A stretch of 64,000 nucleotides of DNA from Gordius albopunctatus (lineage: Eukaryota): positions 14,508,001-14,572,000 of the forward strand of contig OZ193909.1 in assembly GCA_964276515.1 (NCBI GenBank), read 5' to 3'. The position numbers were made by a program, and so were the translations under genes. This document shows, piece after piece, positions 15,297 through 57,711 of this stretch. Position 1 is the stretch's first letter; every line of letters begins with the position of its first letter. The notes beneath the pieces were generated by a model, which was not told where the DNA came from, did not search any database, and was given only the letters and a program-made list of their open reading frames with translations.

Positions 15297-15311
15297 GTCT
15301 TGGTCACGTGT

Positions 15312-17958: not shown

Positions 17959-17981
17959 GTACGGGGGGAAAAAGGCGAAGG

Positions 17982-35239: not shown

Positions 35240-37470
35240 GACTTTACTTAAATCTTTATTAGAACCAAAAATTCGTTCTAAAGGATGATGATGTGTGACT
35301 AATGTAAATTTCCTCCCAAAAATATATTCGTGAAATTTCTGTATGGCGAACATTATAGCAGCGGCTTCGCGGTCAATTACAGAATAATTCCGTTCTGCTG
35401 GACTTAGAGTACGAGAGGCAAAAACTATCGGTGTTTCTTGACCACTAATGAATTTATGTGCAATTACAGCTCCTAAACCTTTGTCTGATGCGTCGAATGA
35501 AATTATAATGGGTAAATTAATTTGATAAAGTTATTGTTTTATCCGTTGAAATTAAGTTTTTTTATTTCGTTAAAGGCCTGTGTTCCTATCATACCCCAAA
35601 TCCATTTCACTTTTGTAGATGTTAATTTTTATAAAATGGAACTTTTGGATTGTAATTGCGGAATATAACTTCCAATGTAATTAACTAAGCCTAGGAATCA
35701 TCTCAATTCTTTACGATTAATTGGTACTTTGAAATTTTTAATTGCCTCAACCTTGTCTTTATTAGGATGAATACCATTTTCATCTATAGTATGACCCAAT
35801 TAATGATTTTTTGAACAATTGTAGTTTATAGAGTGCTGTCGTTAATCCTGCATTTTTGATTAATTTTAATGTTTCTATTAGATTTTTATCATGTTCCTTG
35901 TTGTTTTTCCCGCTTATTATGACATCTTCCATAAAAACGCTTACGCCTTTTAAACCTTTGAACAAGTTTTTCATATAACGATGAAATATTTTAGGCGCCG
36001 TAGTTAACCCAAAAGGTAACCGGAAATATTCAAAATACCCAATATGAGTAGATATGTTAAACAATTTAGAACTCTCCTCAGAAATTGCTAATTGTAGGAA
36101 AGCATCTTTTAAATCAATGATAGAGAATAATTTACCGCCTGCTCTTTCACTTGCAACATCTTTGAACGTTGGTAGAAGATCGTTGTCTTATGATAGGAAT
36201 TTGTTTAAAGTCAATCAGAAATCCCCACATATTCTGACGTCACCAGATTTCTTCCTAATGTTTACAGCAGGCGGCGGTCGGGTCGATCTTTCTAATAACC
36301 ACTTCACCTTTTAAACGTTTCAACTCTGTTTTGACAGCATGACGTAGCGGAAATGGTACGCGTCTTGCGGTAAAACTTATCGGACTTCTGTTTTTCTACC
36401 TCAATAACAACTTTAAGATCTTTTACTTTACCCAATTTTTGACTAAAAACAGTTGGAAATTGTTTGAAAATATCTTCTTCAGTTAAAAAATTTTTCTCAT
36501 CGGAAATAACGTTCAATTTAATGATTGATGGAAGTGATATAAAATTTTATGATGTGAGGTATAGCAAAAATCAAATTTCTTTCTCCAAAGTTTGTATTTT
36601 TGTTTTGCCATAACCGTAAATATTTGAACTTGGCGATAATGGTGGCTTCCCGTTGCTAAGCCACATCGGTTCATCAATGACTGTGCAGGCTGCACCAGTG
36701 TCGAATTGAAAAGTGAACGGTCACTGATTGATTAAAACGTCGATCTCAGCTTTCGTTACCGCCTCATCGTATTTCAGGTCAGATATAGTTCTTGACGGCG
36801 GATTTGACCAGAAATCGCGAGCCACGTGGTTTGGTCTATCGCACCTATAACATACTATTTTCTTGTTGTTCCTAAAGATTCTAAGATTAGGATCATTTCT
36901 TGGAAAAGTATTATAGTTATTAGTCAAATTCCTAGTTGGATATTTCCCGATGTAATTTATTTATGTCCAAATCGTTAGACTTTTCGCCTTCAATTGATGA
37001 AAGAGCAAGAGCCAAAGTTTTTCTCTTCGTCCAATGTCATTTTGCCCATGGGACATTTAGTCCTTAATTCAACCTATCTAGGTAATTTTACTCCTAGGAT
37101 ATAAATATCTCTTTAAATTTTATCAGTGGGTAATTTATATTGGCAGCGATTGATAATATTTTTTAGCTTAATTGAATAATCAATTATATTTTCATTAATT
37201 CTCTCTGATCGAAATAACATTATCCTTGTAATAATTAATCGAATCTTTATCAGAATATATCCGTATTAAAGATTCCTTACCCTCCTCGTAAGTTACACTA
37301 TCAACATCCTTCGGATAAATATGACTTTTTATTTTACTTAGAAATAAAACAATTTTCCTCAAATCTCCGTTAATATTTCTAATACGAAAGTTTAATTCCA
37401 AATATTATTATAAATAATCATCAATATTTTTAGTTGAATCATATGGTGTAATATCTCTAGCCCTATCAAG
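35240..37470 (-). mobile_element. Degenerate Ty3/gypsy element (gag, protease, RT, RNase H)
   Basis: CYRCDRPNHVARD knuckle, FDTGA protease, YFRLPFGLTTAPKIF RT, RNase H; longer than the unit 1 copy. Confidence 0.85.
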
Positions 37471-40089
37471 AGAATTCAGTCATATATACTAGGTTTCCCA
37501 AAATTTGCAAGAACAAATTAAGATGGAATGAAAGATATGCCATATTATTAGTAAAAGGTAAAAGTGTTTGGTAAGTTTTAAAACCTGATAACTTTGAACT
37601 GTCAAAATGAACTGCGTTAGCTTTTTTATGTTAACAGTTTGTTATTAACAATTCTTAATTTTATATAATTTATAATTGTAAACAATACGCCGATAAAAAG
37701 TATCTTATGTTTATATGCCCATTTTGTCATTAAAGTACATGAGCGTAGCCAGGAAGATGGCAGAAGGGGCGAGAATGCCTATGGGGGGGGGGGTAATGGT
37801 TAAGCAGGGAGTCAGATAATACTCGTACAACGTTATAGTTTATTTTAAATATACTATTTGAATATTAATAATTTAAGTATTAATAAATGTTTTATAGCAA
37901 TTTTTACAAAAATTTAGCCTTTTTAATATTTGTATTGAAAAAACTAAGTCATCTGTTTGCATTTTACACTTGATTTTGAGGAATAGGCGAAATGGCGAAT
38001 GGAACGCAAATAAAGAGTATGACCTTGAAAAAACCAATAGTCATCCTTCCAAAACGTACAACTTTTAATTAAGAGTTTATTTGATACTCTATAAATTTAA
38101 ACAATTTGGTGTAAGGGACATAATTTAAATTATGAATATAGACTCTATTCAAAATCATACGCGTATGTACAGTATAAAAAACAACAAAGGAAAAATGAAA
38201 TAGTAACATTTTATCTAATCTAGCGAGTAAATGAATGGATTATGGTGCGAATTTTAGTTACGACAGTGAAATGAAGGTAAAAAATTTGCACTATATTCAG
38301 GGTTAGGTTGGTGGATAGCGGTTTTATTATCAAAAAGGGACGGGGCAAACCAATCTGGGAAACGATAAATATAAAGAACCTTTTAAGGGGTGTGGGGTGC
38401 GGTGAGACGTCGGAAAGAAATTATATAAGGTCAAAAAATAGAATAAAAAATTTCGATATACACTTTGGCCAGTGATTTTTTCCATTGGTCAGCAGGTCAA
38501 AAAGCGTGTAAATACATAAGGATCAATTATTAACAAAACTGAAAAAATTTCCAATTCTTGGCTTCTGTTACGTTTGTTGTTTGGTTTGGGGCTATATTTC
38601 CAAAGGGTTTTAGCTGCTAGCTCGAGTCTTTAGTCGTAAAGGCTCGTTCTTGTGATTAGGTTTGCGGGATTTATTAGTCTGCTGTTAGGTTGACAATAGG
38701 CTTACTCAAGGATTTATTTCATTTATATCTGAATTGACAATAAGCACATTCAAGAATTTTTTTGGTGTTATATCAGTCGACAATAGGCAAATTCTAGGAT
38801 TTTATTCAATCTTTATAGTCAATATATGTCACGAAATGTTTCAGCGGGAAAAGTCTTTCCGGTAATTCAAGGTGCTTGAGTGGCGGTTCAAAAGGTTATA
38901 GGGGATACAGTGATACAGCTCCACGGATAAAAGTTTTGGGGTAATCAGATTATTAAGACGGCGCGGGAAAAATAGCAAGGAAAAATAATTAATGAATTTT
39001 AACGGGATACATGGGTTTTTTAATGACAGGGTTCCTTAACCTCCTGAGGTCGTTGCTCTATTTGCTTATTTTCTATTATCCCTACCTATCCTAAAAAGGA
39101 ATAGCTATTAAATTAACCCCGGCCTTATTTTCAACTCATCCAAACTTACTTCCTAGCCCATTAATCTTAATGTTAATAAACTTACGCATTCCCATCTTAC
39201 ATACCGCTATACTAAACTATTCATCCAACTTATTTTCAAGTACGTTGATCTTAATGGTCAACACAAGTGGAAAATTTCCAACCTTAACTTAGCCCATTAA
39301 TCTTAATAGTTACCCCAACTAGAACATTCCCATCTTTTAATCTTGACAGCTACCCCACCTAGAACATTCCCCTCTTTAAATACATTGGTAATAAATAATT
39401 AAAGGATGCCTTATTCAATCCTTTGTATACGAACATTCCCAACTTTTAATACACCTGTGATAACTTATTAGGGTGGGCCCCCTTAACTCCTGAGGATACA
39501 ACAGGCCAGTGCTTATTTCTTCCATTGATCAGCAGACGGCCAAATAGATAGCCTATACTTATAATATAGAAAAAAAATCGATTTTAATCTCACTTTGGCC
39601 AGTGGTCATATTTTCAAATGGTCAACAGACGGCTAAATAGCTAGCCAATATAACATGATTTATGATTAGTGTAAAAATAGTTTACCATGTTTTTAATATA
39701 ACGCTTTTATGAGTATTAAACAAAAAAATGAAATATGTTTAAAATATTTTTATCCTAGCTGATTTATGCTCAATATATATTCGTTAATATTAAATTGAAT
39801 CCTGTTTCCATGCTAAGAGGTTTTATAGTGATTAATATTATGTTACCTGAACATGTTTTAACCAGCCTCTTAGTTATTGCTGGAGTAGTTGAAGTTCCCA
39901 AAATCTTTTGTTCGTTAAATAATTGTATAATGAATTATAACTATTTATTAATGATAAAACAACTAAGACATAATTTTACATAAGTACAATGATGGGGTTT
40001 TATTACATTTTGATCAAAAATTATTAATAAAATAAATGAAGAAAGGCATATGTTAAAAAATCGTATATTGTAAATATCCCAAATTGAAA

Positions 40090-40963
40090 TTATTCGTTAT
40101 TACAATAACTAACAAAACTTTGTGTGTCATTAAATGAAGGCTTTCTTAAAGAAAGACTGTTAAAAGCTGCCAAACTTAAAGAACTTCTCGCTTCGTATTC
40201 TGGATGGTCATAATTAGGCTTAAAATAAAATTTGATTTCACTTTCATCTTTGGACGCATTAGATCGACTTTTCCACAATTCTAATATTAATGCGGAAGAC
40301 ACATTTGGTGTATCATCCAGCGTTATATTATAAAAATTTAGTAGATGAATAATTTGATAATCGTGAGCAACGTAAATAACTAAATTTTTAGTCCTTCGGT
40401 TAAAACTGTTATTAAATTTTAATTTAATATCTTCAACTAAATTATATAATAAGTCATCAAGCATGCGACTCTTGTTTGAGAAGTAATTGTAGTAAGACAA
40501 CATTAAGTGAGCCAAATTCGTGTAAATAGTTTTATTGGCCTACGCAGGCAAACCCATTCCATTTTCGTTCAAGGTTTTTAGCACTTCAAATATCCTGGCA
40601 GGCAATCGATCGTCTATGATACCTTCGCTCGTATAATTTTTTAGCGAAAGTAAGAAAGCCGTTTGGTTTATCAATAAATTATTGTATTCACTATTATTCG
40701 ATCGAGAAATATGTTGCATACCTTGACTCAGCTTTTTACAATTTTTAAGGCTGCCCATTAAAAAGCAGGACTCTAACAAAGTTGTCCTATTATTAGGAAT
40801 TTTGACTGACCACTCATAAGGTAGAGTTTTGTTTATAGCCAAAATATCCATATTCTCCTGAGTTAAAGAATATTTAGGATCATTGTTGCTGATTCCTATT
40901 AAGATGGCCAACATGCTCGTAATAGTTCTATCTGAGTTTGTGGATAACAAATGAGTATTAAAA
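40090..40963 (-). pseudogene. Acid phosphatase partial copy (lacks RHG exon region, internal stop)
   Basis: TGG>TAG at 40540; 5' end replaced at the tandem junction. Confidence 0.85.
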
Positions 40964-41304
40964 TTTATCCTAGCTGATTTATGCTCAATATCTATTCGTT
41001 AATATTAAATTGAATCCTGTTTCCATGCTAAGAGGTTTTATAGTGATTAATATTATGTTACCTGAACATGTTTTAACCAGCCTCTTAGTTATTGCTGGAG
41101 TAGTTGAAGTTCCCAAAATCTTTTGTTCGTTAAATAATTGTATAATGAATTATAACTATTTATTAATGATAAAACAACTAAGACATAATTTTACATAAGT
41201 ACAATGATGGGGTTTTATTACATTTTGATCAAAAATAATTAATAAAATAAATGAAGAAAGGCATATGTTAAAAAATCATATATCGTAAATATCCCAAATC
41301 GAAA

Positions 41305-42178
41305 TTATTCGTTATTACAATAACTAACAAAACTTTGTGTGTCATTAAATGAAGGCTTTCTTAAAGAAAGACAGTTAAAAGCTGCCAAACTTAAAGAACT
41401 TCTCGCTTCGTATTCTGGATGGTCATAATTAGGCTTAAAATAAAATTTGATTTCACTTTCATCTTTGGACGCATTAGATCGACTTTTCCACAATTCTAAT
41501 ATTAATGCGGAAGACACATTTGGTGTATCATCCAGCGTTATATTATAAAAATTTAGTAGATGAATAATTTGATAATCGTGAGCAACGTAAATAACTAAAT
41601 TTTTAGTCCTTCGGTTAAAACTGTTATTAAATTTTAATTTAATATCTTCAACTAAATTATATAATAAGTCATCAAGCATGCGACTCTTGTTTGAGATGTA
41701 ATTGTAGTAAGACAACATTAAGTGAGCCAAATTCGTGTAAATAGTTTTATTGGCCCACGCAGGCAAACCCATTCCATTTTCGTTCAAGGTTTTTAGCACT
41801 TCAAATATCCTGGCAGGCAATCGATCGTCTATGATACCTTCGCTCGTATAATTTTTTAGCGAAAGTAAGAAAGCCGTTTGGTTTATCAATAAATTATTGT
41901 ATTCACTATTATTCGATCGAGAAATATGTTGCATACCTTGACTCAGCTTTTTACAATTTTTAAGGCTGCCCATTAAAAAGCAGGACTCTAACAAAGTTGT
42001 CATATTATTAGGAATTTTGACTGACCACTCATAAGGTAGAGTTTTGTTTATAGCCAAAATATCCATATTCTCCTGAGTTAAAGAATATTTAGGATCATTG
42101 TTGCTGATTCCTATTAAGATGGCCAACATGCTCGTAATAGTTCTATCTGAGTTTGTGGATAACAAATGAGTATTAAAA
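41305..42178 (-). pseudogene. Acid phosphatase partial copy (lacks catalytic N-terminus)
   Basis: 1215-bp tandem duplicate of the preceding copy; open for 286 aa but without RHGxR. Confidence 0.85.
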
Positions 42179-42231
42179 TTTATCCTAGCTGATTTATGCT
42201 CAATATCTATTCGTTAATATTAAATTGAATC

Positions 42232-42402
42232 TCCAGGACCGGGTTAGGCCCGATCCCGGATTCCCCTAGGTACGGTCTCGTAAGAGGCTTTCGCTAGGGG
42301 CCTTTTATTCACGCGAATCGACGCATTAAATTATCGTAATATGAGCCGGCGGTAACAATTCGCGTACATGAATAATCAAGAAAAAGTTGTGTTTAGAAAA
42401 CG
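42232..42402 (-). ncRNA. Structured 3' tail of element B
   Basis: Hairpin 42232-42260 (two G-U pairs on the minus strand), stems 42263-42269/42294-42300 and 42311-42318/42358-42365; minus-strand AATAAA 42304-42309. Confidence 0.72.
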
Positions 42403-42511
42403 AAATTTTGGAGAATAGGCTTGGGGACAAAGCGGGCGAAACAGGTGAGGAGGGTGTCACGTAGGAAAAACAAGCGAGTGATACCCGGAGGGCAGACGGG
42501 GGTATTTATAC
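42403..42511 (-). repeat. 3' copy of element B direct repeat, containing TATA + Inr
   Basis: TATAAATA 42510-42503; TCACTC 42481-42476 (A 31 nt downstream of the TATA start); exact match to 45195-45303. Confidence 0.93.
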
Positions 42512-42530
42512 CTGGATGCATAGGGTTTAG

Positions 42531-44378
42531 TTAGGGTTCTAAATCGACTATTTCGACCCCTATTTCGTTTTCCCAAAAGTCTAGATCGATGTCGTTTGCC
42601 TCGGGAAGACCTTGTTTGAGAACGTAATCGATATCGGTGTTGGTTTGTTCCTTATCTGGTGCGTCGGGGGCCCATACCCGGGATGGGTAGTCGGCCGGGT
42701 TTAAATGGGTTGGGATCCAAGAGAGGTTAAAGTGGATGTTTAGTAGGTGTTTAATCCCCCAGGTTTTTACGAAGGTAGCTATGACTTCCTCGATCACTGG
42801 GGAGTTGGACCCCCCTTTTTTCAGTACGTAGTATGCCGTGGCGGAGTCCGTATACAATTTCGGGTGATCATGCCCACTAAGGTAAGATCGAACGTACCCA
42901 TACAGGACCGCTACGGTTTCCGACAGTGTTATATGGTATGGCTCTCTCCATTGCCAACCCAAGAAGGCTGCTGCATTCTGAAAGCTGTTTGAGTGCTGGC
43001 CGTAATCGTCGGAGACCCCGATATGCGTGCCGGATGCGTCGACGTAGACGACGTTGGTAGGCCTTACCCAGAGTGGTATGGTTTCGTGTGTGAGCTTTAA
43101 GATACCCATGAGCTTGTGCGCGGCGAGGCTTCTATCGAACCACGGGGGGGTTCCTTGCGTGAGGCTGTAAAAGCTAGAGAAAAGTTTGGACATGCCCGTA
43201 AGGTTATAAAAGAAATAATTAAGGATGCCCAATGCTTCGAGTAGCGTGTTTGTGGGGACATCTCGTGAGAGGGCTAGGAAGAGGATGTCGGCCGCGATTT
43301 GAAGCCGGTCAGCTGTTCCTGGTTTGCATTTAATTGCCGAAACATCGAGTTTGAGTTCCATGCCGAGGTACTCGATGTGTTGTGAAGGCATGATGGAGGA
43401 TTTGCTGACGTTGATCGTAAGGCCCCATGCTTTGGCTAGGTCGGCTAGGTCTTCGAGGTCATTCTGGACGTTGTCGTAATCGGGAGAGTAAATTAGGAGG
43501 TCGTCCAGGTATACGTTGTATTTAGACCGTTTTACTGCCTTTTTAGCGAGGTCGCTAACCACCATTTGTAACACGAACGGGGAGAAGGATGCTCCCATGG
43601 GCAACACATTGTATTCGAAGGGCTTTCTCTTCCAGACGTACCCCAGGTATTTCTTGGTGCTGGGGTGGATGGGAATCGAGAAGAATGCGGCCTTGAAATC
43701 TATTTTGGCCGCCCATCTGGCGTCTGCTATGTGTTTGGCGGTAAGTGGGATGTTCGCTAGCTTCAGGGGTTTCGGCAGAAAGTTTCTAGAAGCAAAAGAC
43801 AAATCGGTTATTACCCTTGCATCCCCGTTCGGTTTGGCGATGAAGAAAGTGGCGGATCGGATGAGGAGTTTCGCAGTCCTTGATACAATCCCTGCGTTAA
43901 GCATTTCCGCGAAGTAGGCCGGAGGTCCTTTTGAGTACCTCTTCGATTTGGGGGGCTGTATCAATCCCCCGTTCAACCGGATGTTGTATGCATCCAGGAT
44001 GGCCTTGTAGCCAAAGGTGGCTACCTTCCTGCTAAATGGCGACATTAGGTCGTGCGGTGTGAGGCGTGAAGTTCGGATGTCGAGCTTTCCGCTTGGCTTA
44101 GCAGTAGTTGACGCCCTGCTCCAGCCGAAAAGCACTTTGTGTGCTTGTATCAGCGATCGGATTTGACCCGATCCTGTGTCCCGGACGAGGGACGGTTCGG
44201 CGTCCTTGAGTCGTTGTTCCGACTCAGCGGGAGATGGCGGAGCGTCGTTTGGTGGCGGTGGTGTCGACGGCGGAGTGTCCGGCAGCTTCGGATCGTCGTC
44301 ATTAGGTGGCGAGAAGATGATGCGTCGCGTTTCCCTAAGAAAATGAAAAACATTTTTAAGCCACGTGGGGGAAACCAT
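42531..44378 (-). CDS. Element B polymerase: RT + RNase H (frame open upstream to 44579)
   Basis: WAAKIDFKAAFFSIPIHP, VLPMGASFSPFVLQ, YLDD, IEYLG; YVDAS..SE..YTDS..WIPTHLNPADYPSR. Confidence 0.95.
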   Translation of the reverse strand: MVSPTWLKNVFHFLRETRRIIFSPPNDDDPKLPDTPPSTPPPPNDAPPSPAESEQRLKDAEPSLVRDTGSGQIRSLIQAHKVLFGWSRASTTAKPSGKLDIRTSRLTPHDLMSPFSRKVATFGYKAILDAYNIRLNGGLIQPPKSKRYSKGPPAYFAEMLNAGIVSRTAKLLIRSATFFIAKPNGDARVITDLSFASRNFLPKPLKLANIPLTAKHIADARWAAKIDFKAAFFSIPIHPSTKKYLGYVWKRKPFEYNVLPMGASFSPFVLQMVVSDLAKKAVKRSKYNVYLDDLLIYSPDYDNVQNDLEDLADLAKAWGLTINVSKSSIMPSQHIEYLGMELKLDVSAIKCKPGTADRLQIAADILFLALSRDVPTNTLLEALGILNYFFYNLTGMSKLFSSFYSLTQGTPPWFDRSLAAHKLMGILKLTHETIPLWVRPTNVVYVDASGTHIGVSDDYGQHSNSFQNAAAFLGWQWREPYHITLSETVAVLYGYVRSYLSGHDHPKLYTDSATAYYVLKKGGSNSPVIEEVIATFVKTWGIKHLLNIHFNLSWIPTHLNPADYPSRVWAPDAPDKEQTNTDIDYVLKQGLPEANDIDLDFWENEIGVEIVDLEP

Positions 44379-44454
44379 ATCTTTATCGCCATTGGGAGTC
44401 GGTAAGCCATCGGGCCCGAGTTCCCAGTTCGTTGCTGCTTTCTGAAGGCGCTTT

Positions 44455-45183
44455 CTAATTCCTGGCAGGGGCCGCGCCCTTTTTGACGTTGCGGCCCTTA
44501 GGTGCGCCTCCGCCCCTGCCAGCTCTCGGAAAAAACTGCCTTCTCTGGGCGTCTTTTTTGACGTCGACGTCGGGCATTCTCATCTCCTTGAGCCAGGCCG
44601 AGTCTTGGGAGGCGGCGGTCTGCCAGTTAAATTTTATAGCCAGACACATCTTTTTAAGTTGGTCGTCTATAGGAATTAGTTCCTCCAGGGTCATCGGGAT
44701 CCTGGTGAGTTTAGCGCAGTGTATTGCGAATTTAGCCTCGTGCTTATCTCTTTTTGCTGCTTTATTATCCGGGTCCAGGATTAGTTCCTCCAGACCGCGT
44801 CGGTGTAGATTGATATCGTCCAATACCGATTCGACGGTGCGCGGAGGTTCGGGCGCCGGCATTATTTGAAGCGTTGAAGGTGCCCCTTGCTGCACGTTGG
44901 GCGGCATGGTGGGGGTAGAAGCCACGGGTATCGGGCCCAGTGTTGTTCGCTGGAGGAGCTGCTGCAGCGCCTCCGTCTGGACCCTTTGCGCCTCCGCTTG
45001 TCTTGTTAGGGCGTTCACGGCCGTTTCCTGCATGGCGGCTATTCTAGCCAATAACCCCTCAACCGCGTTGTCAGAGCCCATTCCGGACCTTAAGGTCGTG
45101 TTAGTAGGTGGCGAAGTCATAGACGTTTCCGGCGTAATCAAGAAAAAACTATTATGCTGGTCTTGAGACCTCGTGTTAACCAT
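44455..45183 (-). CDS. Element B ORF1, Gag/core-like, 242 aa
   Basis: ATG 12 nt after the 5' repeat; homologous to A ORF1. Confidence 0.85.
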   Translation of the reverse strand: MVNTRSQDQHNSFFLITPETSMTSPPTNTTLRSGMGSDNAVEGLLARIAAMQETAVNALTRQAEAQRVQTEALQQLLQRTTLGPIPVASTPTMPPNVQQGAPSTLQIMPAPEPPRTVESVLDDINLHRRGLEELILDPDNKAAKRDKHEAKFAIHCAKLTRIPMTLEELIPIDDQLKKMCLAIKFNWQTAASQDSAWLKEMRMPDVDVKKDAQRRQFFPRAGRGGGAPKGRNVKKGAAPARN

Positions 45184-45194
45184 TCACTACTAAA

Positions 45195-45303
45195 AAATTT
45201 TGGAGAATAGGCTTGGGGACAAAGCGGGCGAAACAGGTGAGGAGGGTGTCACGTAGGAAAAACAAGCGAGTGATACCCGGAGGGCAGACGGGGGTATTTA
45301 TAC
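45195..45303 (-). repeat. 5' copy of element B direct repeat; element begins at the TATA box
   Basis: Minus strand begins GTATAAATA at 45303; host sequence resumes at 45304 (equivalent to 21937). Confidence 0.93.
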
Positions 45304-47444
45304 GTCGAGTCTAAGAATATGACTACTTTTGCAATATCATCAAGCTTATCAAAATTAAAATTCAAAAACTTTACTGGATATTTGATTTAAAAATGAAATG
45401 TAAATATAAACTTCATGTTGTTCATATATAAGATAAACTGTTTTATTCATAGGTAACTAATTGCAGGCAATATGATTATGGCATAAGTAACTTATAATAT
45501 TCTAAAATTAAAATCTATATATATGAATCATTTATTTAATTTCTTGTTAAACGCAATTTGGGAGCCACTCAAATTTTCAATCGGAAAATTCTTTTAAATA
45601 ATATATGCTTTTAAATATTAATTTTGTTTTTAATATTTTCCTCAACTTATTTTAATCTCAGTATATAATTTTTACTTCCTGGAAATATTAATTTCGAATA
45701 TTTGGCCTTTTAAAACATTAAAAAACTATTTTTGGAAGATTTTAAAATTTTTATACACCTCGATTGAGCTGGAACTACACATACAGTAAGTTTTAAATTA
45801 ACATTTAGCCTTACTGTTCGCTTTTTGAGGCACTAGTCAACATTTTTATTCTTACCCTTTGATTTAACTTAGCTAAACCTAACTTATTCATGCACAGTTA
45901 GTAATTAGTTTGATGTGAAAATGGATCTCTATCCAAAATTAGGGTTTATTAATATATTTATATGGATTGTATTAAAGGTTTGGACATTTTTTATGCAATA
46001 AAATATTCCTTTTAAGAATTATAGTAACTAAATTAAAAAAGTTTTACTTTTAAACATAGCTATTTAAAAATTATAAATTTGTTATGTGCTTTTAATTGTT
46101 TTGATTAAATTGCTTTTTAAAGACAAAGGTGAGAAACCAGAGGCGTAGCCACCCCCCTATAGGCATTCTCGCCCCTTCCCACCTTTATCGCCCATAAATT
46201 GCATAGCAAATATGCTACTTTTATACGGAGTATGGATGAGTTTCGTTCCCCCTTCCCTTCCCCTCCTCCCCTTCCCACGAGGGTTCTTTTCCTTTTTGAC
46301 ATTCATTGAAAAACTACAAACTACCTTACAATTAAATAGACTCTTTGTATATTAAAATAAGATATACTACTTTTGGAAACCTCAATTTGTGTCTAGGAAA
46401 AAACATTCGATTGAATTATGAAAAGAAGAAACGTTAGATTTAAAAGTTTTTGATATATGGTTTTGCTCTATGTCCGCATATAAAATCTTTAATTAATAAA
46501 ATAAATAAACAACTTTACTATTTTAATAATTATACAAATAACACTTACAAGTGTTTGCCTGGGAATTAGTCATATATATTAGATTTCCCAAAATTTGCAA
46601 GAACAAATTAAGTTGGAATAAAAGACATGCCATATTATTAGTAAAAGGTAAAAGTGTTGAATAAGTTTTAAAACCTGATAACTTTGAACTGCCAAAATGA
46701 ACTGCCTTAGCTTGTTTATGTTAACAGTTTGTTATTAACATTTCTTAATTTTATATAATTTATAACTGTAAACAATGCGCCGATAAAAAGGATCTTATGT
46801 TTATAGGCCCATTTTGTCGTTAAGGTACATGAGCGTAGCCATGAGGATGGCAGGAGGGGTGGCTGCCCCCCCCCCCTAAAAAAACTACGGGAAAAATATT
46901 TTCAATGCAAAAACTTTGAAAAATTAAAAAAAATTATGTTTTGCACTTTTAAACGTTTTGCCCCCCCCCTAATCTAAAACCTGGCTGCGCCCATGATAAA
47001 GTATATCTTCTACGTATATAAAATTCTCGTGTCACAGTCTTTGGTCCTCAACTCCTCCGAAACAGCTGGGCTGATTTAGATGGAAATTTCTGCGAATATT
47101 TGGTAGGTCTGAGCCTAGGTTTTTAACTATATTCCAAATCTCTAAGTCATAAGACGGTCAAGTTATTTAGTTTTATACGTCTTGACGTTTATTAAAATAT
47201 CACTCAAACGCAACCTCATGACGTACTGCGTATCTATCGTGTAGGTAGTGTGATAAATGCAGTAGGCATGTGTTGCGGAAAATGGAAACTTTTTACGATT
47301 TAAAACATTAAATATCAAAGTCATTTTTTTGCTTATTTTTCACGTCAATTATTATTATTATAGGACGGTCGTGTCCCCTCCTGCGTGGCTAAATAAATTA
47401 AAAAATCTAATTTTGGCATTTTTTGCGCGTTAAATAAGGAGAAA

Positions 47445-49221
47445 GTTTGTGCGACCAGTGGGTGTGGTTTTTGATTATTGGTTATGAAGTGGCTCATGAT
47501 GATTATCGCTGCGTCAATTTTTCTAAGGAACTTGGCGTTGATAGAAAGTTAATGCTGGGCTAGGTTGAGAGCATTCGTTGTGGTGTGGTTTCAGATTTCT
47601 GGGTATTAATAGATAGATTCCATTTGTTTGCTAGTTTTAGGAAATTCCTCGTGTTTTGTTGTACCAGGGCAGCTATTTTGGCATATATTAGGATGTCATC
47701 CAGATATACATTGTATCGACAGGTAGTGATGGATTTAATGCACAAGTCCAACATAATTTGTTGTTGTACAAATGGGGAAAAAGATGCTCCCATAGGCAGC
47801 ACCCTGTATGAGTATTTCGTTCGTCCTGATTTAAAACCGAACAGGTGTGAAATTGATAGGTCTAATTGGATAGAGAAGAAAGCGCTCTTCATGTCAATAT
47901 TTCATGCGTAGTTGGCCTCCGCTAAAGGTTTAGCAATTAATGGGATAGATTTTAGCAAAAAGGGGTATGACGCGAAGTTTTTTGAAATGATGGATAGGTC
48001 TGCGATCATTCTGGGGGACCCATCAGATGGATGCGATCGCGAGACGCTTCCTTCGTACAATGTAGGAATCGATGATTTGGAGTACTAGGTGCCGATTGAC
48101 TCTAGGAATAGGTCGAACATACCGGGGGACAAGGTACTGCCAGTTGTTGTTCGCAAGGGTTCTACTATTGAACCGAGGTTCAAAGCCCCGTCTAGCAACA
48201 TTATAAGTAAACTTGGATTGTGTATGATGTGGCCTGAGCAATGTGGTATTGAGGTCCAATGGTGATGAAAATGGAGTCTTGTTCCCATTGCTTATGTCCC
48301 GAAAGACCGGGAAATAGGGGATGTTAGAAGGTTCATGGATGGTGGGGATCGATTCACTATCGAGTCCGATATCATGTAGGGGTTATTAATATATTCCGCC
48401 ATATCTTAGTGGGTCGGTAGCAGCGTGAAAGGGGTCTTTAGTGGAGGGGCCCCTTCGTCCGGACCATCATCGAGTGAAACAGAATTGATAGCGATGCTCC
48501 GGGCTATACGAATTTAATTGTCTAGCCATATTGGAGCAGTCCGTCTCCAACAATGCTCGGCGGATTATCACCACAGCCGAGGGCCGCCCCTGCCGCCCTT
48601 ACGTATTTCTGTTAAAAGGCGCCTTCCTTGGCATAGGCTTTTCATAGTTCGGCCGAAAAGAGCTAATCTGTTCACTCATCTGTCCGAACCCATTTTTCAC
48701 AGCCCAGTCTTTGGTACGTCCGGTGACTACCTGCCATCCGTAATATGTTGCCATTGCGATGGTTTTAACCCGTTCGGCGAACATTTCGGTAGCTTTGACC
48801 GGATCGTTCCATACTTCACCTAATTCCAGAAGGAAATCGATTTCATGTTTCGGATATAAGGGTACTGCTTTGTTCTTTTTATCAGCCTCCTTCAAACCTT
48901 TAAGTCGTTGCTTTAGTAGTTCAGGTCCTATTTGTACCACGCCGAGACTCTTTTCTTAACCTCACGGGCTATGATTTGGTTTAGCTCTTCAGGAGTGAAG
49001 GACATCGTGTGGGGTTAATAATTGTGGAGATTATCCGGTTTTGTCGAGGCGGGTGTAAATTAACCTTTATTTTTGTCTTTAGCGTTGTCTTACGTGTCTG
49101 AACGCCCAACTTACCCATAATTTTCATTTATTATATTTCCGCGTTTATAATTTGCGTTTCTAAAATAAAATAAAGTGGAGATGGCGAAATATTTTGCGTA
49201 ACCATCCCCAGGGAGCACCTC
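47445..49221 (-). mobile_element. Lineage C RT element, copy 3 (decayed)
   Basis: Same RT motifs with additional deletions. Confidence 0.85.
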
Positions 49222-52200
49222 TTTATTTTGCTCTCACTTTTTTAATTAAATCCAAAACATGTGTATCTAGTAACATTTTTGAGATCCAATGTTTGTAGAG
49301 GTTGAGAAACGTGAGCATTATCAATACATCGGATATATTTTAAAATTAGCTTACTAGTAACATTGTTGATGTCCAAAAAAATATTCATAGAAATTCATAG
49401 ACATTTTGTCAGTTAAATTTTTGTCGAATGAACGGTTACCAAATAGACTGCTCATTGAGCATGCATACATATGAAAAAGTGATGCCTGTTTTACCACCAT
49501 CTTCAACTTATGTAGGTAAGTTTCCATTTTATTCTTTGATATGTTATAAATTTGATAGATGGAGTCATTAATGCAAAATGTTACCTTAGAAAATGACATA
49601 TGTAGGGACATCAACATACGTAACGTCAATCAAGTACGATGTCAATTCCGAGAAATAAGTTAATCACAGATTTGAATTTATTTTCCTAGAAGATCGCACG
49701 CTATGACGTCGATTGACAGATCTTCCTTGAAACTTATCGGTATATTTAGATCTTCTCAGAAGATCATAGATATATTTAAGTCTTCCCAGAAAATAATCGA
49801 TCTTCATGGAAACTCATCGATTAATTTAGATCTTCCAAGAATATTATCGATTTTCCAATAATAATGATTATGTATTTTATAATAACTATATAAACTCAAT
49901 TTTTACGCAAATATAACCAGTCGAATAATTCTAGCAAGATGAATTGTATTCTTTGTTCCAAAATTATCCTTGTATAAGAGTATACAAGCAAGAAACGTAT
50001 TATATCAAAAGACATTTTTTTCTTTCCAATGATATTCTAATAAATGTGAGATTATTTTTTATTTGATATTTAAGTTATCCCAACAAAGATATTTTTACTT
50101 CAATCATAGAAATAGACTATGTTGATTTTAGTGAATTCATCATCATCAAAGGGTATTTGAGAATGAGCAATCAGCCACTGCTCCATTTTTCAAATTCTCG
50201 TCTCGTCTCGGGAGCGATTATAAAAATCTCGATCTCGTCTTGACGAGAATTCTCGCCTCGTCTCGACTTTTAAAAACAAATATATACTGAAAATATTTAA
50301 AATATTTAAAAAATGTTTAAAATACAAATGACAATTTTTTATATTTTTTAAGAAACTTTAATACACAAACTTTTCAAAGATTTAGCGGGACACGACATCT
50401 CATTGACAATATAAAGATATAAATTAATTCATAAAGATAACATTTTCTATGGAAAGTGCAGAATAAAAGACTATAAATAAATTTGAAGTATATAAAATTA
50501 AATGTGAATGTTCTAGCAAATTATAACATTTGTATCAAATTCACTTTTTTGTCAACTATAAATAGACTTAATAATACGTTTGCTTATAGTTGACTTAGTT
50601 GCATAATTGAGCAAATTGAGACCCTTTGTTAACCCTGGGTAAAGCTTCTTAATTGACTAAGTCTATTGTTATCATCATCAATTATATACCATAGTGTTTA
50701 TTGCATGTTTACTATATCGTTATAAACCATAGAGTGCGAGTGACTTTTAATGATAATATTATTATTTACAGAATTAATAACTAGATGCACATATCAAAAC
50801 GTTGTAAAAACAACAATAAAAGCAGCATTATTATAGGATTAAGATAAGGTTTTAAACTGTAAATTGCACGTATTTAAATTTATGACAGAAATCATTATAA
50901 TCAAATTTATATTCCAAATAATTACCTTCCAATTCCAACTAACTTTGCCATTAAATATTTATTGATGGAAAACAGTATAGGTTCGTGTATTTATTTTATA
51001 TTTCACAATTATGGAAATATAATAAATGCACCTGCCAACCCAGCGTATAATGTGAAAAGTAATGCATATGACAAATCTATGTATTCACATAATGTCTTAT
51101 TAAAATTCAAAAATTTGGGAGGTATACTATTAGTTGAAGCATAAAAACTTTAAAAAAATCCATGATTTAGATTTAATCTATTACGGCATCATTAAATACT
51201 CTATTGTACTTTTGAAATCGTTAGGCGGGTGCTAAAAAATCTAGACCTACTTATTCAAACTGATTCACTACCAATTTATAATTAACGCATTATGCAGGAT
51301 GAGTAACTGGAAAATATAAATATGCTTTAGTAATGTTTACTAGTCCATCAGAACTCATTCTAAGCCTAAAATTTGTTTAATATTTAATAGTGCTATGGAT
51401 ACAAATAGGTGATAAAGATATTATAAAATTATTAACATACCCTATGGATCAACCTTACTTAGGTAAATGATTGCCGAATTTTAAATTTTTTGCAAAATAT
51501 ATGATATTTACTACACTTAGTAATTTTTTAAGGATGTTATATAAATGCACAGTAAGAAATTAAAAAATGCGCAGTAAAATATGCACAGTAATATATTTAA
51601 GTGCGCAGTAAATTATTAAAAATTGCACAGTTAATTAATAATAAATTGCTCAATAATTAAACAAAATTGCACAGTTAATTAACAATAAATTGCTCAGTAA
51701 TTTAATAAAATTGCTCAATAATTTAGTAAAATTGCTCAGTAATTATATAGCCTTGCAGAGTAATTTTATAATATTTCTCAGTAATTTTGTAGCATTGAGC
51801 ATTGCTCAGTAATTTAATAACATAGCTTATTGCTTAATACTTTGAATTGATAAGTAATTTTTGAGCATTGCTCAGTAATTTAATAATATTTCTCAGTACC
51901 TCAATAATTTAATAAAATTGCTTAATGATTTGAATTGATAAGTCGTTTTTGAGCATTGCTCAGTAATCAGAACACAACTTAGTTTTCAATAGAATGAATT
52001 GGTTGAAAAAATCTATTATTTTAAAAAATGCCTAATAATCTTTACAAATTGTTCAATAATATTTAGATGCTAAATTAAAAAAATATTCAGTTTATAATTC
52101 AATAACTAATAATTAAATTATCATTGATTTTATGTTTTTATATAAAAAATTTAGTTTGTTGATAAAATTGAGCACTTATTTATTTTAGCTAAAATAAATA

Positions 52201-52473
52201 GTTTGGAGGCTTGATAATATACATTGCCCTTCCTCTTAATGTTATTATGCATATGTCATAAATTTAAATCGAATAAATTTTTGAAATTTTTATTAGAGTA
52301 TAAACATAAATAGTTTCAAATACAAATGCATAATGAACATATTTTGCTGACAATATAAACATAAATAATTTTAAATAGATATACATAGTGAACACATTTT
52401 GCTGGAGCAACCTTTAATTCAAGCCTAAAATTTGTTATAGTCAAGCACATAATTTAAACTTATGAACTTACCA

Positions 52474-53596
52474 TTATTGAACAATGAAGGCTGATTTGGC
52501 TTTTGAGGGTCTGCCCCTTTTTCTTTTTTGCCCTAAAGGCACAAACTTAGCTTCTTTAGGTGTTATGCAAAGTTTAAATTTAATTGCCAAACCCACTATA
52601 TGTTTGCAAATGTAGTATTTGAAAAACACTGGACAATTACATTTACTCTCAAACCATTTTGTGGAATCATCGGGTAATTGACAGAGCCATAGCTTAAAAT
52701 TCCGCGTCTTGAATTCATCAAATGTTTTGAAGTTTAGATTTTTGACATTGCTAATATCTTTTTCATTTATAATCCCGGTACCTGATGGCACACAATATTC
52801 GGTAAAATCAAGTTGTTTTTTTGATAGGCAGTGGCCATTAAAATTAGCAAATTGGTAGCTCTGAGTCCATAGCTTTAAATTGATAGCTGGTGATTTAATG
52901 AATTTTTTTGAATGTTTATACTCGCATGACCATGTTTGGATCATGTCAATTGCTACCACTTTGAACCTATTGATTGGCATCCATTCCCTCAACGTAAATT
53001 CATCTTTTATTAAATGATTAGATGATTCCAGGGCATTATTGGTACTAGGGGTATAATGGCTATATCCTTCATGCCATGTATCATTTTTATAAACCCATTC
53101 TTTATAAAAATATTCGCAAAACTTTGAGGCTTTAGATGACCATTTTTCCAAGAATAAATTGGAGGCTTTTTCAAAGACCTTAGTGCTACGAGACAATTGT
53201 ATTGTATTCATATCCTCTAAAATTTCTTTATGGTATAATTTATCAGCTAGTATAACATAATCATAAAATATATACAATAATATATTTACCTTTTTTTCTA
53301 TATTTCTACGGACGTGAGCCCAACAAATGACAATTGTGTCTTTTCCAATGACAGATTTAAATGCATTATGTATGGAAATTGCCCCATCTGTAATTAATAC
53401 ATCCCACTTGGGAGTTGTATTATTAATAAATTTAAATCCTATAATAAAGTGTTAAATAAAAAAATATATTCTTTTTCTTTTTCATTAACACATAGAGACT
53501 TTCCCATAATATGGAAATGCCTATCATAGTCAGTTGTTCCAATTATTAATAATGGATAACACTGCCAGGTTATTTTGTATGTTGCATCGGCATGCA
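52474..53596 (-). pseudogene. MULE transposase copy 3
   Basis: ORF 52474-53277 plus a frameshifted upstream part. Confidence 0.83.
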
Positions 53597-54435
53597 ATAT
53601 ATCTGAAAACTGACTGTTTAATAAAAGCCTAAAACTAACAGATTATAAATAACTAAATACCTTTTTGTTGACATGGAAAATTTGAAACGAAGGCCTGAGT
53701 TTTATTTATTATCAGATCTTTTCCTTTTTGACATTCATTGAAAAACTACAAACTACCTTAGAATTAAATAGACTCTTTGCATATTAAAATAGGATATACT
53801 ACTTTTGGAAACCTCAATTTGTTGCTAGACAAAAACATTCGATTGAATTATGAAAAGAATAAACGTTAGATTTAAAAGTTTTTGATATATGGTTTTGCTC
53901 TATGTCCGCATATAAAATCTTTAATTAATAAAATAATTAAACAGCTTTACTATTTTAATAATTATACAAATAACACTTACAAGTGTTTGCCTGGGAATTA
54001 GTCATATATATTAGATTTCCCAAAATTTGCAATAACAAATTAAGTTGGAATAAAAGACATGCCATATTATTAGTAAAAGGTAAAAGTGTTGGGTAAGTTT
54101 TAAAACCTGATAACTTTGAACTGCCAAAATGAAGTGCGTTAGCTTGTTTATGTTAACAGTTTGTTATTAACATTTCTTAATTTTATATAATTTATAATTG
54201 TAAACAATGCGCCGATAAAAAGGATCTTATGTTTATAGGCCCATTTTGTCATTAAAGTACATGAGCGTAGCCAAGAGAATGGCAGGAGGGGCGGCTGCCC
54301 CCCCCCCTAAAAAAAATTACGAAAAATAAATTTTCAATGCATAAACTTTAAAAAATTAAAAAAATTTATGTTTTGCACTTTTAAATGTTTTGCCACCCCT
54401 AATCTAAAACCTGGCTGCGCTCATGATAAAGTATA

Positions 54436-55262
54436 TCTTCTACATATATAAAATTCTCGTGTCACGGTCTTTGGTCGTCAACTCCTCCGAAACAGCTGGA
54501 CCGATTTAGATGGAAATTTCTGCGAATATTTGGTAGGTCTGAGCCTAGGTTGTTAACTATATTCCAAATCTCTAAGTCATAAGACAGTCAATTAATTTAG
54601 TTTTATACGTCTTGACGTTTAATAAAATGTAACTCAAACGCAACCTCATGACGTACTGCGTATCTATAGTGTAGGTAGTGTGATAAATGCAGTAGGCATG
54701 TGTTGCGGAAAATGGAAACTTTTTACAATTTAAAACATTAAATATTAATAATCATTTTTTTGCTTATTTTTCACGTCAATTATTATTATTATAGGATGGT
54801 CGTGTCCCCTCCTGCGTGGCTAAATAAATTTAAAAATCTAATTTTGTCATTTTTTGCGCGTTAAATAAGGAGAAAAATGTACTTTTAACAAAGTGCCAAT
54901 AAATGTTGATATATCTCAGTTCTTCGGATATTATTAAGTTCAGAATTAAAAGTTTTATTCAGAAACAAAAAATTATAATTATGATATTGTTTCTTAGTTA
55001 CAAAAAATTTAAAAAAAAATAGCTTGAAGGTCCAGGGGCCAAAGATTTTTCTCTTTGGGGGGCATGGGGCCAGGTTTTCTCTCTTAGGTGGGCCTGGGCT
55101 TAGGACCCTCTTTAACTGTTTGTTTAAAAAATTTTGCATAATAAATACTTATCAATTATATTTGATATATTCTTAATCTATTGAAATTTATCTATAAGAT
55201 GATATATATTCTGCTAATACACCCGTGTAAATGGCAAAACAACGTTTGCCGGGTTCATCTAG
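54436..55262 (+). mobile_element. Complete non-autonomous Helitron-like element
   Basis: A|TC 5' end; 3' hairpin ggcaaa/tttgcc (55233-55250) then CTAG|T at 55259-55262. Confidence 0.7.
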
Positions 55263-55548
55263 TTATTATATATTTCTACATGACTGCTATTTGAATCTCA
55301 TATTTATTTAATTAAAAAAGTACATATATTGGAATTAAATATATCTAAACGATAAAATACCTTTTAAGATAATCCTTGACTTAAAAAAAATCAAGTCTTC
55401 ACAAAGCTACAGGATGATTAAAAGTGAAAACCAAATATTATGAGTAAATGCAACTATTTTTTTAATATTTAATTTTTACTATAAATATTAACAAGCGGCT
55501 TCGCCCCTGGTGGGGGGTGCAAGAGGGAAAGAGGAGAGGCCTTGGGGG

Positions 55549-57096
55549 AGGCACGTTTGTGCGACAAGTGGGTGTGGTTTTTGATGATTGGTTATGAAGT
55601 GGCTCATGATGATTATAGCTGGGTCAATTTTTCTAACGAACTTGGCGTTGATAGAAAGTTAATGCTGGGCTAGGTTGATGTAGATACCCAAGTAATTGAG
55701 CATTAGTTGTTGTGTGGTTTCACATTTCTGGGTATTAATAGATAGATTCCATTTGTTTGCTAGTTTTAGGAAATTCCTCGTGTTTTGTTGTACCAGGGCA
55801 GCTATTTTGGCATATATTAGGATGTCATCCAGATATACATTGTATCGACAGGTAGTGATGGATTTAATACACAAGTCCAACATAATTTGTTGTAGTACAA
55901 ATGGGGAAAAAGATGCTCCCATAGGCAGCACCCTGTATGAGTATTTCGTTCGTCCTGATTTAAAACCTAACAGGTGTGAAATTGATGGGTCTAATTGGAT
56001 AGCGAAGAAAGCGCTCTTCATGTCAATCTTTCATGCGTAGTTGGCCTCCGCTAAAGGTTTAGCGATTAATGGGATAGATTTTAGCGAAAAGGGGTATGAC
56101 GCGAAGTTTTTTGAAATGATGGATAGGTCTGCGATCATTCTAGGGGACCCATCAGATTTGGGTATAAAATACATGGGGGATGCGATCGCTAGACGATTCC
56201 TTCGTACAATGTAGGAATCGATGATTTGGAGTACTAGGTGCCGATAGACTCTAGGAATAGGTCGAACATACCTGGTGACAAGGTATTGCCAGTTGTTGTT
56301 CGCAAGGGTCCTACTATTGAACTGAGGTTCAAAGCCCTGTCTAGCGACATTATAAGTAAATTTGGATTGTGTATGATGTGGCCTTAGCAATGTGGTATTG
56401 AGGTCCAATGGTGATGAAAATAGAGTCTTGTTCCCATTGCTTATGTCCCAAAAGGCCGGGAAATAGGCGATGTTAGAGGGTTCATGGATGGTGGGGATCG
56501 GTTCACTATCGAGTCCGATATCATGTAGGGAGGTATTAATATATTCCGCCATATCTGTGTGCGTCTGTAGCGGCGTGAAAGGGGTTTTTAGTGGAGGGGC
56601 CCCTTCGTCCGGACCATCATCGAGTGAAACAGAATTGATAGCGATGCTTCGGGCTATACGAATGTTATTGTCTAGCCATATTGGAGCAGTCCGTCCCCCA
56701 TCGATGCTCGGCGGGTTATCACCTAGCCGAGGGCCGCCCCTGCCGCCCTTACGTCTTTCTGTTGAAAGGCGCCTTCCTTGGCATAGGCTTTTCATAATTC
56801 GGCCGAAAAGTGCTAATCTGTTCACTCACCTGTCCGAACCCATTTTTCACAGCCCAGTCTTTGGTACGTCCGGTGACTACTTGCCATCCGTAATATGTTG
56901 CCATTGCGATGATTTTAATTTTAACCCGTTCGGCGAACACTTCGGTAGCTTTGACCTGATCGTCCAATACTTCAACTAATTCCAGAAGGAAATCGATTTC
57001 ATGTTTCGGATATAAGGGTACTGCTTTGTTCTTTTTATCAGCCTCCTTCAAACCTTTAAGTCGTTGCTTTAGTAGTTCAGGTCCTATTTGTTCCAT
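55549..57096 (-). mobile_element. Lineage C RT element, copy 4 (least decayed ORF1/pol overlap)
   Basis: ORFs 55659-56021, 56031-56825, 56749-57096; retains NYLG (RT motif E). Confidence 0.87.
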
Positions 57097-57711
57097 GTGG
57101 AACTAGTAACATTTTTGATGTCCAATGTTTGTAGAGGTTGAGAAACCTGAGCATTATCAATAGATCCATAGTTTGGATAAGCTATTATGAAGATAAGATA
57201 TAATTGTTTATGAATAAATGAACTTACAGTTGGTGGTTGTTGGGATGGAGGAATATGATTTTGCACTTTGATTATTGATTGCTCTCACTTTTTTAATTAA
57301 ATCTAAAACATGTGGATATATTTTAAAATTAGCTTACTAGTACATTGTTGATGTCCAAAAAAATATTCATAGACATTAATAGACATTTTGTCAGTTAAAT
57401 TTTTGTCGAATGAACGGTTACCAAATAGGCTCCTCATTGAGCATGCATACATATGAAAAAAGTGATGCCTGTTTTACCACCATCTTGAAATTATGTAGGT
57501 AAGTTTACATTTTATTCTTTGATATGTTATAAATTTGATAGATGGAGTCATTAATGCAAAATGTTACCTTAGAAAATGACATATGTAGTGACATCAATAT
57601 ACGTAATATCAATCAAGTACGATGTCAATTCCGAGAAATAAGTTAATCACACATTTGAATTTCTTTTCCTAGAAGATCGCACGCTATGACGTCAATTTAC
57701 AGATCTTCCTT

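Follow-up and report, generated by a model that had tools for sequence, protein, structure and literature searches.

A structured three-hairpin tail at the 3' end of an integrase-less retroelement in Gordius albopunctatus

How does a retroelement that has no integrase start the copying of its RNA, and how does it then enter a genome? This question is raised by a 64,000-nt stretch of AT-rich animal DNA from Gordius albopunctatus (assembly GCA_964276515.1, contig OZ193909.1, positions 14,508,001 to 14,572,000 of the forward strand; hereafter the window, in whose coordinates positions are given unless a contig is named), which carries two copies, A and B, of a retroelement of about 3 kb. The element is recently active, lacks an integrase and is apparently undescribed; literature searches, in which paper supplements were not covered, returned no description of it or of the tail of three hairpins with which both copies end. 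We give an even chance to the idea that this tail is the site to which the element's reverse transcriptase (RT) would bind, and that first-strand cDNA would start opposite the final A of a terminal GGA, at the extreme 3' end of the RNA.

The three-hairpin tail

Each copy contains, in sense order, a terminal repeat (R), two open reading frames (ORF1 and ORF2), a short promoter stretch, R again and the tail. The whole elements, their repeats and the parts of their tails, with the three hairpins named H1 to H3, are the following.

42232-45303, minus strand: copy B, whole element
42232-42402, minus strand: tail of B, 171 nt, reaching from the border of the 3' R to the final GGA
42310-42366, minus strand: H1 of B, a long stem of 11 pairs (2 of them G-U) with ACGCG/CGCGU at its base
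42303-42309, minus strand: AAUAAAA of B, between H1 and H2, paired with UUAUUC in a predicted extended H1
42263-42300, minus strand: H2 of B, a CCCCUAG/CUAGGGG stem that encloses a small distal hairpin and an internal loop of GAAA / CGUA
42232-42260, minus strand: H3 of B, the terminal hairpin UCCGGGAUCGGG / CCCGGUCCUGGA, 12 pairs with 2 G-U on the sense strand
42403-42511, minus strand: 3' R of B, 109 nt, 100% identical to 45195-45303
45195-45303, minus strand: 5' R of B, starting 1 nt ahead of the TATA box, with the ORF1 leader directly after it and no tail
15039-18058, minus strand: copy A, whole element
15039-15181, minus strand: tail of A, 143 nt
15115-15160, 15107-15113, 15072-15103 and 15039-15070, minus strand: H1 base, AAUAAAA, H2 and H3 of A
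15182-15258, minus strand: 3' R of A, 77 nt, 100% identical to 17982-18058
17982-18058, minus strand: 5' R of A; here the 5' end of A is joined to a shortened host repeat with a 2-nt microhomology

Read on the sense strand, the two tails share one order, ACGCG...CGCGU, one base, AAUAAAA, two or three bases, CCCCURG...CYAGGGG, one or two A, and finally UCCG...GGA, and element B ends at the base of H3. A first-pass annotation, made from the sequence alone, had described these parts in the same sense order in both copies, each stopping at GGA, and both the sequences and the junctions presented below agree with it. Its estimate of about 70 nt between AAUAAA and the end was also accurate, since 69 nt (A) and 72 nt (B) follow the last A of the motif, and no run of A stands after GGA in A or B, in line with its remark that the element carries no poly(A). 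The H2 stem reads CCCCUGG/CCAGGGG in A and CCCCUAG/CUAGGGG in B, and encloses GAAA...CGUA. The likening of this internal loop to a loop E-type motif holds at the level of sequence only; in A, such a loop competes with a predicted ACGU/GCGU stem.

Folding with ViennaRNA predicted the three hairpins in both tails. The whole tail of A reached -44.6 kcal/mol (z -4.92, none of 200 shuffles as good) and that of B -52.5 kcal/mol (z -2.55, 2 of 200 as good). The signal was stronger when H2 and H3 were taken together: -37.0 kcal/mol in A vs -17.1+/-3.0 kcal/mol for dinucleotide shuffles (z -6.7, 0/500 as good), and -35.9 vs -23.5+/-3.1 kcal/mol in B (z -4.0, 1/500 as good). When 70-nt windows were taken along each element, the terminal one ranked first of 212 in A and second of 216 in B, and no structured window was found within the 5' R. 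The most structured window of B is 44128-44197 (minus strand, z -4.9), inside ORF2; within it, the 20 nt at 44155-44174 are 80% identical to H3, and no counterpart was seen in A.

Copies A and B, to which the full-tail comparison extends, are identical at 105 of 186 aligned columns (56%). Because the MAFFT alignment shifted the arms by one base, pairs were counted after registering the arms by hand from the outermost pair. Of the 21 stem pairs compared in this way, 14 are invariant, one has changed on one side (G-C to G-U), six have changed on both sides in a compensatory manner, five of these being located in the terminal hairpin, and none is broken, which bears out the earlier statement that the stems are kept with different sequences. 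One could still wonder whether the resemblance is due to chance or whether the tail is a functionless passenger, as two copies were compared and AT-rich genomes hold many hairpins. Such an explanation is very improbable in view of the shuffles that almost never fold as well, of the same hairpin order and motifs being kept at this low identity with compensated and unbroken pairs, and of the highly structured 3' untranslated region (UTR) of a distant relative, described below. Altogether, the similarity of the tails is real and non-random.

Further copies of the family were available as public contigs, in which the distal stem of H2 varies at 42277 (C>T) and at 42286/42287 (G>A). These variants, which are unphased, would leave the stem paired if they were carried by the same copies. 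Among the contigs of X2 they occur at comparable depth (1794/3387 units for 42277 C>T, 1994/3587 for 42286/42287 G>A), in figures that pool contigs of all degrees of likeness and cannot serve to rank parts of the element.

The strand on which the pairs form is less clear. The first-pass annotation had held that the two mismatches of the B terminal hairpin become G-U pairs on the sense strand only. This is true of H3 of B, which forms 12 continuous pairs on the sense strand and has two A-C mismatches on the antisense strand, but the inner stem of H2 in B shows the reverse, with six pairs, G-U included, on the antisense strand against three on the sense strand. The total folding energies are equal on both strands.

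Copy ends, fusions and the start of reverse transcription

Five junctions downstream of the tail were seen, four of which stop exactly at GGA.

Junction 1, copy B in the window: GGA, then host DNA, whose match to uninterrupted paralogous units reaches 42231
Junction 2, copy A in the window, ending at 15039: GGA, then T14
Junction 3, contigs of X1 and X2: after GGA, a T/A-rich filler of 12 nt and a copy whose truncation lies at 45149
Junction 4, contig of X3 (another study): after GGA, a T/A-rich filler of 9 nt and a copy with its start shortly past the ORF2 stop, upstream of the TATA box
Junction 5, contig of X1: the final three bases are gone, and the joint lies near the same upstream point, with a possible 3-nt microhomology

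The uninterrupted form of the B site was also seen as a loose contig end. In contrast to the 3' ends, the 5' ends are variable: that of A lies inside R, that of B one base before the TATA box, and those of the contig forms at 45149 (one case) or 8-11 nt past the ORF2 stop (two cases). No target-site duplication was found at A or B, where target DNA has instead been deleted or duplicated.

Two fusions bear on the same point.

13506-15038, plus strand: hexokinase retrocopy, 5'-truncated and intronless, with AATAAA at 15002-15007 and A14 at 15025-15038
L001 1576-2139 and L004 2141-2447: fusion in a distant relative of the element

The hexokinase retrocopy, which has at most 47% identity to any protein among the matches listed, the host having no close representation in the protein collection, consists of a reading frame of 346 codons followed by about 490 nt of 3' UTR, AATAAA, 17 nt and A14. 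This A14 directly abuts the antisense of element A, beginning from the last base of the element. The fusion is thus a copy of a processed mRNA in which the 3' end of the poly(A) meets the first base of the first-strand cDNA of A. It could have arisen in two ways: the 3'-OH of the hexokinase mRNA would have primed cDNA synthesis on the last nucleotide of the element RNA, or the polymerase finishing the second strand of the element would have jumped to the mRNA 3' end. By either route, GGA was the physical end of a replication intermediate. The second fusion comes from metagenome contigs, in which four loci of one distant relative were found, with a 3' end in L001 only. In L001 and L004, a 183-nt sense fragment of the end of the element's own ORF2 has its 3' end joined to the first base of an antisense copy, which is the same design as that of the A/hexokinase fusion. 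The 172-nt 3' UTR of this relative has a folding energy of -100.9 kcal/mol (z -7.9), and a GC-rich hairpin lies 4 nt from its end.

The junction anatomy leads us to infer the following mechanism. The genomic RNA would run from about 30 nt past the TATA box through R, ORF1, ORF2, the promoter stretch (U3), R and the tail. The RT would recognise the tail and initiate at its terminal nucleotide, taking as primer any free 3'-OH, either that of a broken chromosome end or some other RNA's 3' end. Both the fusion of A to the hexokinase poly(A) and that in L001 would follow from priming by such foreign 3' ends. With R at both ends, the promoter stretch could be returned to the 5' end by copying, an idea with which the two copies whose starts nearly coincide past the ORF2 stop are consistent. 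Host end-joining would finally link the linear DNA to the genome or to further copies.

The promoter and start site are suggested by general consensus rules. R is found at the element 5' end and again after ORF2, and a TATA box stands before it. The 3' R of B contains TATAAATA (42503-42510), and copy A has TATATAAA upstream of its 3' R (15289-15296); a conserved TCAYTCGCT about 30 nt downstream would be the start site, and the TATA box the promoter.

Several observations support the proposal that cDNA starts at the tail: the tail is found only after the 3' R, the ends at GGA are exact, the 5' ends are variable and there is no integrase. In both copies, indeed, the 5' R runs straight into the ORF1 leader, and a repeat search within the elements detected the R pair alone: inverted terminal repeats were absent, and the tail did not recur internally. 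RT recognition and priming had already been put forward in the first-pass annotation, and what fits the new data is the option of initiation at the 3' end, as for a 3' tRNA-like structure, given the GGA in four of five junctions, the variable 5' ends and the fusions of A and L001.

AAUAAAA, unchanged in sequence and place between A and B, suggests another role. The tail could be mainly a signal for 3'-end formation or stability, the folded hairpins bringing AAUAAA-directed cleavage near GGA; in a variant of this idea, the terminal hairpin would protect a non-adenylated end. The cDNA would then stop there for no other reason than that the RNA does. Folding of H2 and H3 indeed leaves a short path between AAUAAA and the end. 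Both copies end in A, and A is a usual cleavage nucleotide. A similar structural bridging operates in the HTLV-1 (human T-lymphotropic virus 1) Rex response element. We nevertheless find it unlikely that this is the main function. No copy has a sense run of A past GGA, which a cDNA primed on poly(A) would carry, the AAUAAA of B is predicted to be paired, and the exact joining of foreign 3' ends to the terminal base is left unaccounted for. It should be added that a 3'-end signal is compatible with a start of cDNA at the tail and does not exclude it.

One could also assume that the hairpins act on DNA, forming a structured, U5-like end of a linear intermediate that would be recognised or shielded while the second strand is made or the DNA is joined to the chromosome. 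Folding is as good on the antisense strand as on the sense strand, with the inner H2 stem of B better on the antisense, and the head-to-tail junctions with small fillers or microhomology resemble end-joining of linear DNA. A TCCAGG, the inverted complement of the terminal CCTGGA, is moreover present upstream of the B TATA box (within 42512-42522, minus strand, just upstream of the 3' one). However, this 6-mer is neither terminal nor matched in A, which has only a loose counterpart, and is probably there by chance; H3 of B has its two A-C mismatches on the antisense strand; the 5' repeat has no tail, so that there is no symmetric long terminal repeat (LTR); and no integrase or recombinase family was found that could read such an end. 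A DNA-level role is, to our mind, improbable.

Returning to the start of cDNA at the tail, a number of points weigh against it. One of the five junctions lacks the final GGA, so that the constancy of 3' ends, which the first-pass annotation expected in further copies, holds for four of them. The T/A-rich fillers of 9-12 nt behind GGA are unexplained, with T14 at the same place in A; non-templated addition, short RNA tails or A-rich primers are possible sources. The conserved AAUAAA points to ordinary 3' processing. The full-tail comparison is limited to A and B, and the variants in the contigs are without phase; 42277 C>T (9068/29451) is in X1 commoner than 42286/87 G>A (5497/25880), and this imbalance may mean that some copies carry a mismatch on the sense strand that is a G-U pair on the antisense. 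The evidence on strand is mixed, H3 of B speaking for the sense and its inner H2 stem for the antisense with equal energies, and the case for a structure at the RNA level therefore rests on context and not on pairing rules. The sample behind the best run may be the one from which the window was assembled, in which case its contigs represent other loci and not an independent organism. Finally, retroviral RTs are described, in 10.1101/792986, as having no acceptor-binding pocket for end-to-end switching.

What would such a mechanism mean? Structured 3' ends that direct the start of RT are known for non-LTR elements and for fungal retroplasmids. To our knowledge, none has been known for elements whose RT/RNase H is of the retrovirus type; such elements normally prime on tRNA or protein and employ an integrase or a recombinase. 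If true, a start at the tail would thus add a third strategy of priming and integration within the retrovirus-type RT lineage and would account for the spread of an element without integrase. More tentatively, and with some doubt, one may see here a hitherto undescribed virus-like class that combines an RT/RNase H without integrase or tRNA priming, a start on a structured tail, a promoter restored through a repeat and linear DNA that is end-joined. The two-hairpin module is 65 nt long and, with one protein, would make a compact testable system.

Protein kinship and comparison with known systems

On the sense strand, the roughly 3 kb of each element contain just two ORFs, as follows.

44455-45183, minus strand: ORF1 of B, an orphan helical protein with a basic Gly/Arg-rich tail, "gag-like" by position only
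17278-17958, minus strand: ORF1 of A (ATG at 17958), 38% identical to ORF1 of B
42531-44579, minus strand: ORF2 of B, an N-terminal part of low confidence that includes a proline-rich stretch, followed by RT (YLDD) and RNase H
15312-17387, minus strand: ORF2 of A (RT/RNase H), 51% amino-acid identity to ORF2 of B
17354-17362 (A) and 44527-44536 (B), minus strand: conserved G-UUUUUU-CC at the ORF1/ORF2 overlap

ORF2 is in the +1 frame relative to ORF1, and both frames are kept between A and B at the overlap. The conserved G-UUUUUU-CC is a likely candidate site for a +1 programmed frameshift in which tRNA-Phe would slip from UUU to UUC.

ORF1 encodes 227-242 amino acids across the two copies. 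It has no relatives by Pfam, Atlas or a near-length homologue search (E <= 0.01), and its predicted model is of low confidence (predicted local distance difference test, pLDDT, 53.9). Its basic, Gly/Arg-rich C-terminus raises the hypothesis of a packaging or dimerisation signal, in which the tail would be bound by the ORF1 protein in the manner of a psi or epsilon encapsidation signal. The conservation of the GAAA/CGUA internal loop, and the fact that the tail is unique to the 3' end of the full-length RNA, would suit this hypothesis. We hold it for improbable, since the supposed ligand has neither detectable relatives nor a confident model and packaging leaves the exact terminus and the junction anatomy unaccounted for.

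ORF2 is about 680 amino acids long, with an RVT_1 domain, the YLDD motif and RNase H motifs; the RT-coding DNA of A and B is about 66% identical. In the element proteins, Pfam recognised only RVT_1 and no integrase, recombinase, protease or nuclease family, and residues 1-170 of ORF2 have a pLDDT below 50 and no confident fold. The closest solved structure by sequence is the Ty3 RT (6.4e-11), and the predicted fold matches the RTs of Moloney murine leukaemia virus (MMLV), foamy virus, cauliflower mosaic virus (CaMV) and Ty3, with E down to 7e-14.

Public protein collections contain almost nothing of the element family. When a profile built from both ORF2 proteins was searched against 1.84 billion cluster representatives, only four proteins scored E <= 1e-30, of which three are annotated proteins of the horsehair worm Gordionus sp. 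and the fourth is metagenomic; all remaining matches were at 5.1e-27 or weaker. On 51 neighbours, Pfam found the Dam-like domain of DIRS elements in some, RT_RNaseH in some and, in a few, weak hepadnaviral RNase H. No relative was found among viral contigs, whether a single protein or the family alignment was used.

A quick tree was built from 55 chosen proteins, namely five family members, 41 profile hits, three hits of the first search and six integrase-bearing outgroups. The hits were mostly matches spanning RT and RNase H; several RT-only matches were kept for their DNA_pol_viral_C match and all remaining hits were left out. The element family forms one clade (89 in the Shimodaira-Hasegawa-like approximate likelihood ratio test, SH-aLRT), in a tree with long branches and without any named reference. 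This clade sits beside unnamed proteins from 2-4-kb contigs and outside the cluster that holds all seven Dam-bearing rows.

Which known system does the element resemble most? No RNA family was of help here. The Rfam search proposed as a check in the first-pass annotation returned no match at gathering thresholds in the whole window, and in permissive scans of both tails everything was far below gathering, the best score being 25.5 bits against 52.1. As for a tRNA-like fold, ARAGORN found no gene in the window, and the ends read GGA and not CCA.

The 3' UTRs of R2 and other stringent non-LTR elements are like the tail in having a structured 3' end without required poly(A), with cDNA made from the exact 3' end, and also in their variable 5' ends and chimeric products with other sequences. 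Unlike them, the element has an RT of retroviral/Ty3/DIRS type with RNase H, no endonuclease was found and insertion is not site-specific, the 3' end carries a TATA promoter stretch and the terminal repeat R, and no similarity in sequence or by Rfam was detected.

A parallel can also be drawn with the Mauriceville and Varkud retroplasmids. Like them, the element would have its 3' structure recognised, would start terminally from unrelated DNA or RNA 3'-OH ends and would give head-to-tail multimers and chimeras with cellular transcripts. Junctions of this type, considered by their anatomy alone, are the A/hexokinase poly(A) fusion, L001/L004 and the head-to-tail contig joints. In 10.1101/792986, the R2 and Mauriceville RTs are said to start at the RNA 3' end, with multimers and chimeras with cellular transcripts. 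The tail differs from its retroplasmid counterpart in its GGA instead of CCA end and in having no tRNA-like fold, and the element itself is a nuclear one of an animal, with ORF1 and RNase H and integrated linear copies in place of a circular plasmid.

The element resembles Blubervirales and HEART elements, the latter compared through statements in other papers, in the size of its unit (about 2.8 kb), in its two ORFs, in an N-terminal region and proline-rich stretch that precede RT-RNase H, in its TATA box, redundant termini and stem/internal-loop/stem/loop hairpin, and in integrating without an integrase. HEART elements were reportedly described by Gong & Han in 2018. As a difference from Blubervirales, no terminal protein (TP), hepadnaviral RNase H or core family was detected in the element, nor any structured part in its 5' R: PF00242 was not found, and PF00336 only at E 0.065, in two of six family members. 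The analogy with epsilon proposed in the first-pass annotation is for these reasons abandoned, the 5' R having in addition no tail. The sequence after R differs between the 5' and the 3' end, so that the element does not derive from a circular genome. Such genomes, circular and of 3.2-3.5 kb, with TP-RT-RNase H (TP-RT-RH) polymerases, the direct repeats DR1/DR2 and epsilon, are reported for proto-nackednaviruses in PMC12691608, PMC12440569 and PMC11551314. PMC12440569 calls HEART an enigmatic group whose mobilisation mechanism is unresolved. A route such as the one proposed here may be that missing mobilisation of HEART-like elements, and a model between retrotransposons and hepadnavirus-like viruses.

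The DIRS/PAT/Ngaro group comes to mind since several of the nearest RT/RNase H relatives with Pfam domains beyond RVT_1 carry a Dam-like methyltransferase (MT) domain, and since the element has unequal terminal repeats at its two ends and no target duplications. It differs in that no tyrosine recombinase or MT domain was found in the element, and in having neither A1-B1-A2-B2 split repeats nor inverted repeats with an internal complementary region, the split direct and the inverted types being those defined for the group in PMC4157794.

With the R-U5 end of LTR retrotransposons, finally, the element has in common a short repeat at both presumed RNA ends, a promoter stretch before the 3' repeat and a retrovirus-type RT/RNase H. 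In contrast to them, its 5' repeat (77-109 nt) lacks the 143-171-nt tail and complete LTRs are thus absent; neither an integrase (rve), nor a target duplication of 4-6 bp, nor a recognisable tRNA primer-binding site was found. Apart from the retrovirus-type RT with RNase H that it has in common with LTR retrotransposons, the element lacks the tested defining features of the LTR, DIRS, Blubervirales and non-LTR groups.

Four other accounts of the tail were considered and set aside. Splicing of the tail out of the 5' end is ruled out, as the borders of R have no GT/AG; so are split direct repeats, since the tail has no internal copy, and origin from a circular genome, given the unlike sequences after the 5' and 3' R. 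Self-priming by H3 with flip-flop loops was rejected, loop-inversion variants not being listed at 42244-42248 among the contig variants.

Genomic setting

The window is built from a segmental block of about 22.4-23.4 kb, present in three head-to-tail repeats of 98-99% identity.

1-22469, 22470-45836 and 45837-64000: tandem blocks
60037-64000: pieces of a partial inverted copy, at the window end

Copies A and B occur in one block each and are missing from the sister blocks; their insertions are therefore younger than the block duplication. Copy A and 1.5 kb of other DNA (the whole at 13506-18053) stand in place of 1597 bp of the paralogous block, the sequence displaced by the hexokinase/A pair corresponding to 36013-37610 in the sister block. 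At the B site, a local tandem duplication of 1215 bp is found together with the absence of a 531-bp stretch. The duplicated sequence (39749-42231) comprises two 1215-bp units and 52 bp and directly adjoins the 3' end of B; the sister block has a single unit and the 531 bp that are absent beside B. The unit contains part of a histidine-phosphatase-like ORF (His_Phos_2).

Other mobile-element ORFs are present in the repeated block at 6737-7906, 9109-9675, 57659-58483 and 60768-61319; these encode a MULE/SWIM transposase and several RVT_1 RT fragments unrelated to A and B. Each block also holds one array of a 21-bp AT-rich tandem repeat, at 5951-6259, 28397-28705 and 51688-51996.

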